NCBI GenBank assembly: GCA_965246715.1
Contig: CBDFFH010000015.1
Location: 160,001-224,000 of the forward strand
Origin: Chamaesiphon sp.
GTDB taxonomy: Bacteria; Cyanobacteriota; Cyanobacteriia; Cyanobacteriales; Chamaesiphonaceae
Direction: 5' to 3'
Length of the DNA: 64,000 nt
The notes below the pieces were generated by a model. The model did no database searches, was not told the origin of the DNA, and saw only the letters and a program-made list of their open reading frames with translations. The position numbers and the translations under genes were made by a program. Below are positions 39,619-48,059 of this stretch, piece after piece (the first letter of the stretch is position 1; each line of letters starts with the position of its first letter).

Positions 39619-40785
39619 ATGAAAGCCGTCTGCTGGCAAGGTACCGATAAAGTCCAAGTCGAAACCGTACCCGATCCCAAAATTCTCAACCCCAGAGATG
39701 CGATCGTCAAAATCACCTCCACCGCAATTTGTGGATCCGACCTCCACCTCTACGGCGGCTACAACCCTACCATGAAACACGGCGACATCCTCGGCCACGA
39801 ATTCATGGGCGAAATCGTCGAACTCGGTAGCGAAGTCAAAAACAAAAAAATTGGTACCCGCGTCGTCGTTCCCTTCGCAGTCGCCTGCGGTGGTTGTTTC
39901 TTCTGCAACCGCGATCTCTGGTCGCTGTGTGACAACGGCATCCCCAACGGTTGGCTCCCCGAAAAAGTTATTGGTTATGCCCCATCTGGTATCTTCGGTT
40001 ACTCCCACTTCACAGGCGGCTACGCAGGCGGTCAAGCCGAATACGCTCGCGTCCCCTTCGCCGATGTCGCCTTGCTAGAAATTCCTGACGGCATTCCCGA
40101 TGAGAAAGTCTTATTCCTGACCGATATTTTCCCCACAGGCTACATGGCCGCCGAAAATTGCCATATTCAGCCAGGGGATACCGTCGCGATTTGGGGCTGT
40201 GGCCCTGTCGGGCAATTTGCCATCCGCAGTGCCCTGATGCTCGGGGCCGAAAAGGTCATCGCGATCGATCGCGTCCCCGAACGCCTGCAACTAGCCAGAC
40301 AAGGCGGCGCAGAAATCTTAAATTATGAGGAAGTCGAGGTCGGCGAAGCCCTCAAAGAAATGACTGGCGGACGCGGCCCCGATTCGGTGATGGATGCCGT
40401 CGGCTCCGAAGCGCATGGCATGGGTTTAGAAGGTTTCTACGATCGCGCGATGCAAACTGTCGGACTCGAAACCGATCGACCCAGCGCCCTCCGACAAGCG
40501 ATTGTATCATGTCGTAAAGGCGGTACCGTCTCCGTTCCTGGCGAATACTCTGGCTTGGTCGATAAGCTGCCGATGGGCGCATTTATGAACAAAGGTCTGA
40601 CGATGCGGAGCGGCCAAACCCACATCCATCGCTACTTACGTCCGTTACTCGATCGGATTCAAAACGGCGATATCGACCCCTCATTCGTCATCAGCCACAT
40701 TCTCCCGCTCTCGGAAGCACCCAAGGCTTATGACATCTTCAAGCACAAGAAGGATAACTGCATCAAGGTCGTGCTCAAGCCTTAA
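39619..40785 (+). CDS. Zn-dependent (formaldehyde dehydrogenase-like) dehydrogenase, copy 1
   Basis: ICGSDLH, GHEFMG, Cys cluster, GCGPVG. Confidence 0.92.
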
Positions 40786-40820
40786 TGGAACTCGATCTTG
40801 AGGGATCGAGCACAAATTTT

Positions 40821-40923
40821 GCCCTCATCCCCTAACCCCTTCTCCTAGAATTAGGAGCGATTCGCTCCGGTCTGACTCTTGCTTCTCTCTCCCAGAATTG
40901 GGAGAGGGGCTGGGGGAGAGGGC
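40821..40923. repeat. CCCTCATCCCCTAACCCCTTCTCC-type inverted repeat
   Basis: Arms pair with GGGAGAGGGGCTGGGGGAGAGGGC. Confidence 0.7.
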
Positions 40924-40959
40924 CAGCCAAACATCATTCAATTAATGGAGATTTAAATC

Positions 40960-42126
40960 GTGAAAGCAGTTTGTTGGCAAGGTACGAATAAAGTTGAAGT
41001 CGAAACCGTTCCCGATCCGAAGATTCTCAACCCCCGCGATGCGATCGTCAAAATCACCTCCACCGCCATTTGTGGCTCCGATCTGCACTTGTATGATGGT
41101 TACAACCCCACCATGAAACATGGTGACATTCTCGGTCATGAATTCATGGGCGAGATCGTCGAACTCGGTAGCGGAGTTAAAAATAAAAAAGTCGGTACCC
41201 GCGTCGTTGTCCCCTTCACCATTTCCTGCGGGAACTGTTTCTTCTGCAAGCGGGATTCTTGGTCGCTGTGCGATAACTCCAACCCCAATGCGTGGATGGC
41301 AGAGAAAATGCTCGGTCATTCCCCTTCGGGCTTGTACGGCTACTCGCATCTGACAGGCGGCTATGCAGGCGGTCAAGCCGAATACGCGCGCGTCCCGTTT
41401 GCGGATGTCGGTCTATTTGAAGTTCCCGATGGTTTAACTGACGAGCAGGTATTATTCCTGACCGATATCTTCCCGACTGGCTACATGGCTGCGGAAAACT
41501 GCGATATTCAACCTGGGGATACCGTGGCGATTTGGGGGTGCGGTCCTGTCGGACAGTTTGCGATTCGGAGTGCCTTTATGTTTGGTGCCGAGCGGGTAAT
41601 TGCGATCGATCGCGTGCCCGAACGTCTGGCGATGGCTAAAGCTGGCGGCGCGGAAATCCTAAATTATGAAGAGATCGAAGTCGGTGAAGCGCTCAAGGAA
41701 ATGACCAGCGGACGCGGCCCCGATGCCGTGATGGATGCCGTGGGGATGGAAGCACACGGACTGGGGTTGGAAGGGTTTGTCGATACCGTCAAACAAAACC
41801 TCAAAATCGAAACCGATCGACCGAGTGTGCTCCGTCAGGCGATCGTTGCATGTCGCAAAGGTGGCACGGTATCGGTACCTGGAGTCTACACGGGTCTAGT
41901 CGATAGCATCCCGATGGGCGCATTCATGAATAAAGGTTTGACGATGAAAACCGGACAAACGGACATTCATTACTACATACCGAAGCTACTCGATCGGATC
42001 CAAAATGGCGACATCGATCCCTCCTTCGTCATCAGCCACCGCCTCCCACTTTCCCAAGCCCCCCACGCTTACGAAATCTTCAAGCACAAGCAGGATAAGT
42101 GTACCAAGGTCGTCCTCAAGCCTTAA
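40960..42126 (+). CDS. Zn-dependent dehydrogenase, copy 2 (tandem paralog)
   Basis: Same length and motifs as copy 1. Confidence 0.92.
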
Positions 42127-44335: not shown

Positions 44336-44621
44336 TCGATTTTGGATGGTGGATTGCCTCAGCCTTGAAATGACGGAAGCTCTAAAAACGGAAAAACTTA
44401 TTCTTCTTTAAATATAACTTGTAACTTTAAATATTTTATGTTACTACCGCGCTACCCTCGGTTTTCTCTATAGAACCCATTTGAGATCTTCTAGTGGGTA
44501 GGGTGGGTTCGTTCACGATCGATCGGTAAGAGCGATATCAGCTAGCATAAACCTACCCCTACAGATCTATAACTAACGTATTACGTATTTTACAGATCGA
44601 CCGTAGATACTGTCTTGAATG

Positions 44622-45593
44622 TCAAGGGGTGGCGAGCGAATAATTAGGGTCAAAGGGCTGTTGAGACTTTAAAATGCCAAAAGCCAAATGGACTAATTTA
44701 CGCATGATGGCACCAATCGCCTGCATTTTAGCCTTGCCACGATCGAGTAATCGTTCGCTGAAAGTTTTGAGCAGAGGATTATGACGCATCGAGACTACCG
44801 CAGGCATATAAAGAGCTTTGCGGAGTCGAGAATTACCAGTACAAGACAACCGAGTTTTGCCATGAACGCTGGTGCCACTAGAGCGCTCAGATGGAGTTAA
44901 ACCCGCATGGGCAGCTAATTGACGAGCATTCTGGTAATCTTCGATCCGACCGATTTCTGCCAACAAGACAGCCGCAGTCTGTGCGCCAATTCCAGGAATT
45001 GAGACCAACAGATCTCGCTGTTGTTTTAACTCTGGATGTTTGTCGAAATGGTCGCTAATTAATTGTTTAATTAGGGCTTGCTGTTCCTGGAGATAGGTCA
45101 GATGAGATTGAGTGAGTTCAGCTACTTTGGTGGTGGCTGTTTCCAAGCGATTGTGTTCGGCTGTGACCATTTCCTGAAGAGAATCTAATCGCCGGACCAG
45201 GGCTTGTAGTTCTTTGATTTCAGGGGCTGTTGGTTTCCACAGTTCTGGTTTAATTGCTGCACAAAAACGGGCAATCAATGCTGCATCAACTGAATCAGTT
45301 TTCGTCCGTAATAGTTCGCCCTTGGCAAACCCTTGAATTCGGGCTGGATTGACGACACTAACGGCAAAGCTGGCTGAGTAGAGGAATTCGGCTAAAGCGT
45401 CTCCATAGATGCTGGTCGCTTCCAGACAGGCGTGCATTTGGTCGATCCCTTTTTGTTTGAGCCACTGCTGCAAACTCTCAAACCCTTGCAGATCGTTGGT
45501 GAATTTTTTGGATTTTGTTCTCGTCTCTCCCATGATTAGTACTACATGAAAGTCTTTTTTGCTGATGTCTATCCCTAAAAAATTAACTGTCAT
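44622..45593 (-). CDS. IS110 DEDD recombinase A
   Basis: GID, EAT, KTDSVD and SSGTS motifs. Confidence 0.95.
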   Translation of the reverse strand: MTVNFLGIDISKKDFHVVLIMGETRTKSKKFTNDLQGFESLQQWLKQKGIDQMHACLEATSIYGDALAEFLYSASFAVSVVNPARIQGFAKGELLRTKTDSVDAALIARFCAAIKPELWKPTAPEIKELQALVRRLDSLQEMVTAEHNRLETATTKVAELTQSHLTYLQEQQALIKQLISDHFDKHPELKQQRDLLVSIPGIGAQTAAVLLAEIGRIEDYQNARQLAAHAGLTPSERSSGTSVHGKTRLSCTGNSRLRKALYMPAVVSMRHNPLLKTFSERLLDRGKAKMQAIGAIMRKLVHLAFGILKSQQPFDPNYSLATP

Positions 45594-45629
45594 TAACTGC
45601 TTACTCCACTCCTAACTATGCTCAAAGAA

Positions 45630-45840
45630 CTTGACAGACTGTTTAACTAACCTTGTGATTGCAGGCTTTTCGGTAAATCGATTGCCTAAGATACTGTCCA
45701 GCTTTAGGTGTGTCTGTCATCAGTTGTGGGAGCTTATCTACGCAGCAGACTAACAATGTTGTCTAAGGGGCGGGCCAGCTTCACCGATTACTGATGTCCT
45801 CACTCTCACTTTCTCGCATCTGGCGATCGCGCTCTGAAAC
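45630..45840 (-). ncRNA. Bridge RNA of element A (ends approximate)
   Basis: LTG CCCGCCCCT 45766-45774, RTG CGTAG 45738-45742, LDG ACAGTATC 45690-45697, RDG ACAAG 45652-45656, each pair inside a stem-loop. Confidence 0.85.
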
Positions 45841-46124
45841 TGTTATGGTTTCTTTACGCCGATCGATTTATTCCTCTGACTCACTTGGTTTGTGTCGATC
45901 TCTTTGAACTACGTTTGTTCTAAGCATTGTCTATATCGATCGATTACCTACCTCTCTTTAAGATACAAGGGGCGGGTTTATGCTAGAAATTTCCGCCAAA
46001 CATGACCAAATCAGAACAAACCCGCCCATCTTCACCAATATGTTAATTTTGGAGCGTGGCTGAATTAAGGTATGAAAACATTGGTAGGGGCAATTCATGA
46101 ATTGCCCCTTGGATCCTAAAGGAA

Positions 46125-46325
46125 GGTCAAAGAGTAAAATCGTAAGACCGAGCATCAACAGCAAAAGGGAAAGGGAAATTCGGATTGCCCCTAGGGACAC
46201 CAAGCCCGTTAAGTAGATCGAATTACCTTAACCTAAACAGTGGAACCAGTCAAAGCTGGACAGTATCAGAGGTCGTCCCAAACGGGTAAACCTGCATTTA
46301 CAAGGATAGTTTATCGCCACTAATT
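46125..46325 (+). ncRNA. Bridge RNA of element B (ends approximate)
   Basis: LTG ATTGCCCCT 46184-46192, RTG GTAG 46213-46216, LDG ACAGTATC 46260-46267, RDG ACAAG 46300-46304. Confidence 0.85.
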
Positions 46326-46362
46326 GCTGTTGAAGCAGTCCATTAGCAGATAGGAACTGGCA

Positions 46363-47355
46363 ATGAGTAATTCAAACGAAGAGTTAGACATACTCGGTAT
46401 CGACATCAGCAAAGCCAAATTTGACGTAGCCTTACTCAAAAACAACGGCAAAGACAAAATCAAAAGCAAGGTATTTGCGAATACCCCAGAAGGGTTTGAG
46501 CAATTACAGGAGTGGCTAAACAGCCAAGGAATAACCAAACTACATGGCTGCATGGAAGCAACTAGCATTTACGGAAATGCCCTAGCCAGATTTCTAGTTG
46601 CAGCAGGATACATCGTAAGTATCGTTAATCCATCCCGTCCAAAAGCATTTGGACGAAGTGAATTAAGTCGGACGAAAACCGATCGTGCGGATGCAAAAGT
46701 GATTGCCAGATTTGGCGCGGCATTACGCCCAGCACCCTGGACTCCTCCAGCGATCGAAGTCGAACAACTTCAAGCTTTGGTTCATCGCTGGGATAGTTTG
46801 ACTGCCATGCAGCAACAAGAGCAGAATCGACTCGAAACGGTTGACCCAATTTTAGTCGAGGCGATCGCCGCACATATTGACTTCCTCAAGCAACAAGTTG
46901 CTGCGACTCAACAACTGATTCGCGACCATTTCGATCGATTCCCCACTCTTAAAGCTCAACGAGATTTACTGATTTCGATGCCAGGTATTGCCGCCGCTAC
47001 TGCAACGGTAATACTAGCCGAAATTCGCGATGTGGCTACCTTTGACAGTGCCGACCAGCTTGCTGCTTTTGCGGGTTTGACCCCGCATGAGTTTTCTTCT
47101 GGTTCCTCTGTTCATGGCAAACCCCGTTTGTCTAAGATCGGTAACGCTCGTTTGAGAAAGGCTCTCTATCTGCCTGCGATTGTTGCTCGTCGCGATCATC
47201 CCTTGATTCAGGTTTTTTGCGACCGTCTGTTGGCTAAAGGTAAGTCGAAAATGGCGATGATTGGTGCTGCTATGCACAAACTTCTGCGCCAGGTCTTTGG
47301 TGTGCTGAAATCTCAACAACCTTTTGACCCGAATTTTCTTTCTCTTCTCTCTTGA
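46363..47355 (+). CDS. IS110 DEDD recombinase B
   Basis: GID, EAT, KTDRAD and SSGSS motifs. Confidence 0.95.
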   Translation: MSNSNEELDILGIDISKAKFDVALLKNNGKDKIKSKVFANTPEGFEQLQEWLNSQGITKLHGCMEATSIYGNALARFLVAAGYIVSIVNPSRPKAFGRSELSRTKTDRADAKVIARFGAALRPAPWTPPAIEVEQLQALVHRWDSLTAMQQQEQNRLETVDPILVEAIAAHIDFLKQQVAATQQLIRDHFDRFPTLKAQRDLLISMPGIAAATATVILAEIRDVATFDSADQLAAFAGLTPHEFSSGSSVHGKPRLSKIGNARLRKALYLPAIVARRDHPLIQVFCDRLLAKGKSKMAMIGAAMHKLLRQVFGVLKSQQPFDPNFLSLLS

Positions 47356-47412
47356 CTCTCAAGACAGTATCTACCAATGTTTGTGCGTTTCATACATTAA
47401 TTCAGCAACGCC

Positions 47413-48059
47413 AGAAATTGCTCACCGCACCACTTGCCCGCAAACTAGTTCGCCAACTGCGACGTGCTGGCGTACCAACACTCAACCTTACCCCCGAAAA
47501 GTTTCGACAAATTTCAGCTACCGAGCGCGCTTCTGGCATTGCAGCGATCGTCAAACAACGCTGGTCGAAATTAGCTGCAATCTCACCCCGCGATGGGTTG
47601 TGTTGGACAGCGCTAGAATCCGTGCGATCGGCAGGCAATCTCGGCACTCTGATTCGCACTTCCGAAGCTGTTGGTGGGGAGGGTTTTATCCTGATTGGTA
47701 AGCACATCGATCCGTTCGATCCCGATGTGATTCGTGCATCGATGAGCGGGATTTTTTGCCAGCATTTCGTGCGTACCAGTTTACCGCTACTGGCCGAATG
47801 GCTGCAACGGCATGATTGCCAATCGATCGGGGCTTCGCCAGATGGGATGACAGATTTGCACCAGTTCGATTATGCTCGCTCTACGTTGCTGTTCCTGGGT
47901 GCAGAGCGGCAAGGGTTGACTCCACCGCAGCGAGAATTATGCCATCATTTGGTCAAAATTCCGATGGTTGGCGAAGCTGATTCGCTCAATCTGGGGGTCG
48001 CTGGGAGTTTATTCTTGTATGAGATTAAGCGATCTGTCGATCGACATGCTTCAGGTTAA
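47413..48059 (+). pseudogene. TrmH-family methyltransferase missing its N-terminus
   Basis: SAGNLGT, GAER, SLNLG; reading frame begins at the MITE boundary. Confidence 0.75.

Follow-up and report, generated by a model that had tools for sequence, protein, structure and literature searches.

A predicted IS621-group bridge RNA in a Chamaesiphon-like cyanobacterium and the repeat arms that its guides match

Two IS110 elements in the window

The window, by which we mean the whole 64,000-nucleotide stretch analyzed here, belongs to contig C15 of a genome of 6.1 Mb. Back to back in it are the genes for two IS110 recombinases, A (45593-44622, minus strand) and B (46363-47355, plus strand), and the nearest named relatives of element A come from MAGs of Chamaesiphon and other cyanobacteria. 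The ends, recombinase, and junctions of the elements are as follows.

44605..45969, minus strand: IS110 element A (IS621 group), core CT to core CT; ends seen in 5/5 genomic copies
44622..45593, minus strand: bridge recombinase ORF, 323 aa
45970..45976, minus strand: left target CCCGCCC; its core CT is at 45969-45968
44601..44604, minus strand: right target ACGG; the core CT before it is at 44606-44605
44607..44613, minus strand: left donor ACAGTAT, right end of element A; equals the IS621 donor
45963..45967, minus strand: right donor TGTAT, start of the left end of element A; equals the IS621 donor
44620..44625, minus strand: TTGACA, predicted -35 box of a circle-junction promoter
45960..45965, minus strand: TATCTT, predicted -10 box
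46108..47372, plus strand: IS110 element B, same left donor as A; ORF 46363-47355, 56% identical to A

The A recombinase combines the Pfam domains PF01548 and PF02371 (DEDD RuvC-like and Transposase_20 with the catalytic serine) and is identical to the IS621 protein at 136 of 323 residues (42%). Its D9, E58, D100, D103, and S239 align with D11, E60, D102, D105, and S241 of IS621, so that all five catalytic residues are kept, and its only PDB matches are IS621 and ISCro4. The joined ends of element A read ACAGTATCTTGTAT, which is the 14-nt IS621 donor as given in the accessible part of the supplement of PMC11208160. A repeated CT core bounds the element in all five genomic copies, with no target duplication beyond the CT. 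These five copies have identical loops and unrelated distant flanks (46 to 55%), and three of them differ from the window copy by just 3 to 8 bases in 1,361. By this comparison, element A is one that has spread recently, through five independent insertions. One further observation concerns the copy at G000:C15:36983-38550, which is split by a 1,568-bp insertion with a long open frame; a 90% identical copy of that insertion is present on contig C36, and it is likely another IS.

The predicted bridge RNA

The non-coding left end of element A (45967-45594, 374 bp) lies upstream of the ORF, and positions 45796-45632 (minus strand) within it are predicted to encode the bridge RNA. The element, an IS110 member of the IS621 group, is intact, and its host is a Chamaesiphon-like cyanobacterium. 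A preliminary description of this DNA had already read a target loop and a donor loop here; that reading was right, it matches IS621 element by element, and the strings that it quoted are all present where it placed them. On the minus strand, the target loop comprises CATCAGT (45796-45790), GTGAAGCT (45784-45777), and CCCGCCCCT (45774-45766), followed on the 3' side by GCGTAG (45743-45738), AGCTCC (from 45734), and ACTGATG (45724-45718), and the donor loop comprises TGACAGAC (45719-45712), ACAGTATC (45697-45690), ACAAG (45656-45652), and GTCTGTCA (45639-45632).

45718..45796, minus strand: target-binding loop module (predicted fold and homologue alignment)
45796-45790/45724-45718, 45785-45777/45734-45728, and 45765-45746, minus strand: outer stem, inner stem, and hairpin of the target module
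45766..45774, minus strand: left target guide CCCGCCCCU (matches left target plus core; guide-target covariation)
45736..45741, minus strand: right target guide GUAG (45741-45738) and handshake AU (45737-45736)
45632..45719, minus strand: donor-binding loop module
45719-45712/45639-45632, 45703-45700/45648-45645, and 45688-45662, minus strand: outer stem, short stem, and hairpin of the donor module
45690..45697, minus strand: left donor guide ACAGUAUC (invariant in 19/19)
45650..45660, minus strand: right donor guide (45660-45652) and handshake GU (45651-45650)

In the target loop, the left guide equals the left target plus core and the right guide is complementary to the core plus right target, and the donor loop carries guides for the joined right end-left end sequence. 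Some details of the earlier reading need adjustment. The outer stems are present as described, but they overlap by 2 nt (45719-45718) and cannot both be of full length; the fold uses 6 and 7 bp for them. The letters GCGTAG-ATA are there as quoted; the right target guide is GUAG and the AU that follows is the handshake. Likewise, ACAAG in the donor loop stands, but the GU after it is a handshake guide that had been overlooked.

In a single-sequence fold, the stems described earlier have pair probabilities of 0.83 to 0.99 outside the overlapped ends. Folding energy was rejected as proof of structure, as the z-scores are weak (0.22 for 45615-45830; target loop -1.57, donor loop -2.66, the two together -0.2). 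Support for a bridge RNA comes from guide complementarity and conservation. RNAalifold run on 19 homologues (an alignment that leaves out L054, L055, L058, L060, L061, and L067) recovered both outer stems, the inner target stem, and both hairpins. Under an IS621-based structure, 92.4% of 697 cells in these 19 homologues are paired and two-sided changes occur in 5 of 37 pairs, although the short inner donor hairpin is paired in just 59.6% of cells. None of 500 shuffles scored as high and slid controls reached 26 to 38%, figures that amount to no probability since the sequences are kin. The bridge RNA positions of the flipped A, the syn G, and the handshake dinucleotides of IS621 are described in the accessible text of PMC11208158; the equivalents of A43, G48, A67, G72, A116, A150, G155, and A81 are invariant in 19/19 homologues, and, as aligned, those of G121, U82, G166, and U167 are kept in 17/19, 18/19, 18/19, and 17/19, respectively. 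Covariation in the alignment supports both predicted stem/internal-loop/hairpin modules. Rfam gave no match in 44400-47500 at E values up to 0.5. In four related elements (L015, L051, L052, and L055), the right donor guide is replaced by nonmatching letters in an otherwise conserved bridge RNA, a change that may be linked to half-match recombination.

Comparison with known systems

The comparison with IS621 of Escherichia coli draws on the accessible parts of PMC11208160, PMC11208158, and PMC13626964 and on PDB entry 8wt6. The two share an RNA encoded ahead of the ORF in the left end, the same 14-nt donor, the CT core, a 9-nt left and a 4-nt right target guide (GUAG preceded by UGC), a left donor guide, AU/GU handshakes, a G at guide position 4 that accepts wobble, a REP-type target, and the DEDD and serine residues. 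They differ in the left target guide (CCCGCCC here, AUCGGGC in IS621) and in protein sequence (42% identity); here, moreover, the left end is 374 bp long with about 170 nt before the target loop, the target and donor stems adjoin with 2 nt in common, few targets are perfect (4 of 8 family arms are filled), and the host is cyanobacterial. Loop spacings are 33/44/42 nt, versus 27/46/39 nt in an IS621 copy. Element A carries every sequence-level mark of the IS621 group; by analogy, its bridge RNA is predicted to bind the recombinase and to program recombination.

The second PDB match, ISCro4 (IS622; 10.1101/2025.05.14.653916; PDB 9t56; E=7.4e-75), is described in the available part of that preprint as the Citrobacter orthologue of IS621, 88% identical to it, and has the same two-loop design with handshake guides; our comparison with it was by protein, not RNA. 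ISPpu10 and ISPpu9 of Pseudomonas putida resemble element A as IS110 elements whose insertion sites are repeated palindromes in intergenic DNA (accessible parts of 10.64898/2026.03.19.712850 and PMC12288879). However, the ISPpu9 RNA lies downstream of its ORF (PMC12288879, same part), unlike that of element A, and a role of the target hairpin is shown for ISPpu10, whereas here the hairpins are predicted. The target itself resembles the GTAG-tagged REP superfamily, of which GTAG-12, -15, and -16 are described in cyanobacteria (available text of PMC3733652), in its GTAG/CTAC-ended arms, inverted pairs, and intergenic location; here, however, the arms flank variable spacers of 40 to 50 bp in a composite palindrome.

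The mechanism itself has been published, and CCCGCCC-CT-AC is already in the IS621 target set: as far as the accessible part of PMC11208160 goes, CCCGCCCCTAC targets appear in it twice. "Chamaesiphon" was not found in the readable part of the supplement of that paper, which may still list the element. Titles and the openings of abstracts, with few subscription papers among them, yielded nothing on cyanobacterial bridge RNAs, guide-repeat coevolution, or guide sharing between co-resident elements, and bioRxiv supplements may list such orthologues.

Proposed mechanism and circle junction

The reading that we favor, at a probability of roughly 93%, is that this is a predicted IS621-group bridge RNA. 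Its two loops agree letter for letter with the occupied site and with the ends of element A, and by pairing it would steer the recombinase to CCCGCCC-CT-AC arms of a GTAG-type palindromic repeat. If element A behaves as IS621 does in the accessible parts of PMC11208160, PMC11208158, and PMC13626964, low-level read-through would allow rare excision to give a circle, the joined ends would form a TTGACA-17 bp-TATCTT promoter (17 bp as counted on the junction), and the RNA would be transcribed. A recombinase tetramer would bind both loops, the top strands would be cut after CT and exchanged between donor and target, and the handshake pairs (AU with donor positions 7 and 6 and G with target C7) would favor insertion. 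Near the core, site choice would be strict, whereas rG:dT would be tolerated at position 4 and positions 1 to 3 would be looser; being graded in this way, it would usually, not always, let a perfect arm beat a variant one.

Neither a circle joint of element A nor an empty allele was present in the four contig sets searched (4/4), and contigs drop rare forms. RNA contigs of relatives cover the bridge RNA region in 4/4 metatranscriptomes; as these were selected for holding the region, may contain DNA, and represent relatives only, they are a weak hint of expression.

The target repeat and site choice in this genome

The target is a multicopy intergenic palindrome tagged with GTAG, whose arm family is present in 27/27 genomes of the genus. 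The occupied target had been given as CCCGCCC-CT-ACGG, and this is borne out (45976-45970, then CT, then 44604-44601). A nearby "sibling REP" had been described as empty, with two mismatches to the guide; both points hold (positions 3 and 4), but it is not a separate copy. It is the opposite arm, on the other strand, of one palindrome of about 190 bp that it shares with the occupied arm. The empty arms around the two elements, with the guide of element B, are as follows.

44552..44562, plus strand: empty partner arm CCTACCC-CT-AC, then A (CCTACCCCTAC)
46021..46031, plus strand: outer arm CCCGCCC-AT-CT, full left-target match without CT core, empty
44498..44508, minus strand: empty outer arm ACCCACC-CT-AC, which departs from the guide at three positions
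46084..46094, minus strand: perfect, empty target of element B, ATTGCCC-CT-AC, 6 bp from the occupied arm of B
46184-46192, plus strand: left target guide of element B, AUUGCCCCU

All five copies of A are in CCCRCCC-CT-AC, four of them in CCCGCCC-CT-AC and one, on contig C14, in CCCACCC-CT-AC, and about 480 other abundant CTAC-ending repeat arms are unused (p=3.5e-8). The genome has 37,028 CTAC positions, and repeat arms present in 118, 89, 88, 76, 54, and 39 copies are ignored by A. At the level of the repeat family, the guide does pick the site, to judge from these counts.

Whether it also discriminates between arms of the family was claimed earlier from the empty sibling, which alone proves nothing: with 5 insertions among 25 family arms, blind choice would leave any given arm empty with a probability of 0.8. 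The argument is weakened further because perfect sites are empty too, including that of element B; genome-wide, five perfect CCCGCCCCTAC 11-mers are empty. The mismatch of the sibling at position 4 is an rG:dT wobble, which is accepted by the C14 copy and, according to the accessible part of PMC11208160, used routinely by IS621, and the informative mismatch is the C:A at position 3. The genome-wide counts, in contrast, favor the guide. The comparison of occupied with empty sites that had been proposed was run on AA-CCYRCCC-CTAC arms and gives modest support: 4 perfect arms are occupied and 4 empty, against 1 variant arm occupied and 16 empty (4/8 versus 1/17, p=0.023). Taken against the CCTACCC arms alone (0 occupied, 5 empty), the difference has p=0.098, and for perfect plus wobble arms against position-3 variants, p=0.082. 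Three A sites have a partner arm, and in all three the insertion is in the perfect arm.

The alternative that survives best, although we consider it unlikely, is that the guide picks the repeat family only and that the arm is settled by chance, by the palindrome hairpin, or by host tolerance, which would make the empty sibling uninformative. The two higher p values and the blind probability are compatible with it, as is the empty perfect arm beside element B. All five reconstructed A insertion sites fold into hairpins, and ISPpu10 tolerates distal guide mismatches and uses a target stem-loop (accessible part of 10.64898/2026.03.19.712850). Against it stand the 4/8 versus 1/17 contrast, the partnered sites, and the poor tolerance of IS621 for double mismatches (available sections of PMC11208160), together with the events in related genomes given below.

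Two further ideas were not borne out. The data do not support a choice between arms by a fifth right-guide pair (C opposite G): it is available in three of the four occupied perfect arms and in one of the four empty ones (p=0.24), p is 0.18 over 23 elements, and IS621 has the same UGC there. Nor do the counts establish that the repeat has escaped the guide. Among empty arms, the share of perfect ones, 4/20, is the second lowest of the 27 genus genomes (median of the others 0.61, some at 0.33 to 0.41), and it becomes 8/25 here once the insertions are added back. In a check for a cognate REP-associated tyrosine transposase, the genome gave six Y1_Tnp matches, one of which, a weak one (C34:104298-104570), stops 72 bases from a perfect arm.

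Guides and sites in related genomes

When 15 distinct guides are set against the sites that they occupy, 92 of 105 positions agree, versus a permuted mean of 44 and maximum of 73 (0/100,000 as high). With one element set apart, all guide-site differences are at positions 1 to 3 and six of the seven are wobble-compatible, and in an element of Leptolyngbya boryana the right guide is altered to GAAG and faces CT-TC. The exact guide CCCGCCCCU accounts for 19 events: 17 in perfect sites, 1 in CCCACCC, 1 in CCTGCCC, and none in CCTACCC. Perfect arms dominate in four genomes (G106, G113, G481, and G062), and matches in them are therefore hardly informative. G524 has an A4 guide in a CCCACCC arm where 42 of the 44 empty arms are CCCGCCC, and in G165, which also has an A4 guide, both family junctions (2/2) are in CCCACCC. 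A general rule that guides track the commonest repeat variant was rejected, CCCACCC arms numbering 64 in G165 but 1 of 44 in G524.

In a pool of nine genomes, guide and site agree at positions 3 and 4 in 13 of 16 events, where 7.8 would be expected (p=0.002). This is a test with few events and kin genomes in which guides were read by eye with the sites known and in which L097 and L107 entered by their left ends with their own guide unread. Leaving out this genome, 9 of 11 match versus 6.2 expected (p=0.044); before two events were added, the counts were 11/14 (p=0.008) and, again leaving out this genome, 7/9 (p=0.15). In the four closest genomes, 9 of 10 events match versus 3.5 expected. This and the pooled p value also argue against a guide that selects the family only. 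Both misses in G046, where the element with a CCCG guide occupies CCTG and the one with a CCTG guide occupies CCCG, mismatch at position 3 and fit that alternative. Further misses are the wobble site of C14, a G:G mismatch at position 3 in G105, and, in G021, the guide of L018, which matches its site at 1 of 7 positions. A G165 remnant with three distal mismatches was excluded from the pooled count, and L098 and L106 fall outside the arm family. Duplicates were counted once (L004=L013; L024/L028/L031). Dropped from the set were L047, L049, and L062 (3 of 17 metagenome matches; chance, inside another gene), L003, L058, L059, and L060 (no left junction), L008 to L011, L019, and L022 (fragments), and 20 of 33 listed matches, taken as chance.

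Overall, the sites used in the relatives follow the guide, probably down to single letters. Site choice is likely graded, not absolute, in line with the mismatch scans of IS621 and ISPpu10 and with half-match insertion (available part of 10.64898/2026.08.31.748434).

A less probable alternative is that the guide-site match arose partly after insertion, with young, unmutated arms being the occupied ones or with later mutation of flank or guide inflating or blurring the discrimination. Three of the occupied A sites belong to one repeat subfamily, with near flanks 73 to 90% alike, and the mismatched G046 event is an old, partly frameshifted triplicate whose three copies share both flanks and were thus duplicated as a block. 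However, the 3 to 8 differences in 1,361 bases among A copies leave little time for flank decay, and guide changes in relatives are paired with site changes. That the target is chosen by protein or DNA structure, with the guide-like strings as nonguiding remnants of captured target DNA, is very improbable: the weak folding z-scores and the fact that element A is known from sequence alone leave room for it, but it runs against the covariation over 15 guides, including GAAG opposite CT-TC in L. boryana, the conserved IS621 loop geometry, and the reprogramming shown for IS621 (accessible part of PMC11208160).

Two structures were seen along the way. L013, L024, L028, and L031 of G046 carry about 400 extra bases with IS110 remnants before the right end. 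On a metagenome contig (minus strand), the mini-element L061 stops where the DNA of its own left donor guide is repeated with CT-AC after it, as though this guide DNA had been used for the right end.

Possible guide sharing and possible use

With pairing to CCCGCCC-CT-AC arms as the preferred reading for element A, one may tentatively picture a cyanobacterial series of IS621-type elements on one fixed donor, in which guides are retuned by single letters, families are divided (A versus B), and an element is at times delivered by another's RNA. Retuning is seen in the A4 guides in CCCACCC arms and in a U3 guide where CCTGCCC arms are abundant. Guide sharing is possible because the donor is nearly constant across elements while the guides vary. 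In G021, L018 (guide GAAACCC) lies in ACCGCGA-CT-AC, the exact 7/7 target of the co-resident L026 (L026/L112), and 14 empty ACCGCGA-CT-AC sites are present versus 4 for the guide of L018 itself, which suggests that L018 was delivered by the RNA of its co-resident. In G046, two guide variants are each in the other's site. The cross-sites in these two genomes may instead be due to later mutation or misassembly.

An intact, recently active IS621 orthologue with the same donor is a candidate tool for cyanobacteria, and the genome lends itself to a test of specificity in nature, as most of its targets are imperfect.

Element B and neighboring genes

Counting remnants, element B has seven left junctions in this genome (three ATTGCCC, three ATTACCC, and one ACTGCCC), which match its guide AUUGCCC, and A and B never cross sites (0/5 and 0/7). 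In two B copies (window 46110-46114; G000:C47:100229), the right donor reads TGGAT instead of TGTAT, which alters the predicted -10 box; one of them may have moved after the change. Another copy (G000:C43:136545 onward) has a palindromic repeat of about 230 bp inserted between the target and donor loops. A mini-element of about 110 bp with B-type ends and without RNA or ORF (G000:C54:20245-20146) occupies an ATTGCCC site and probably either moved in trans or was deleted in place. Truncated B-like remnants at G000:C22:145018 and C41:88679 are about 85% identical to B and retain the whole bridge RNA, with most of the ORF lost.

At 39619-42126 in the window are two tandem, similar 388-aa ORFs, which we take to resemble zinc-dependent alcohol dehydrogenases. 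An ORF for what is presumably a TrmH-like RNA methyltransferase is called from a TTG within the right end of B (window 47352-47355), and B may therefore have altered the start of this gene.
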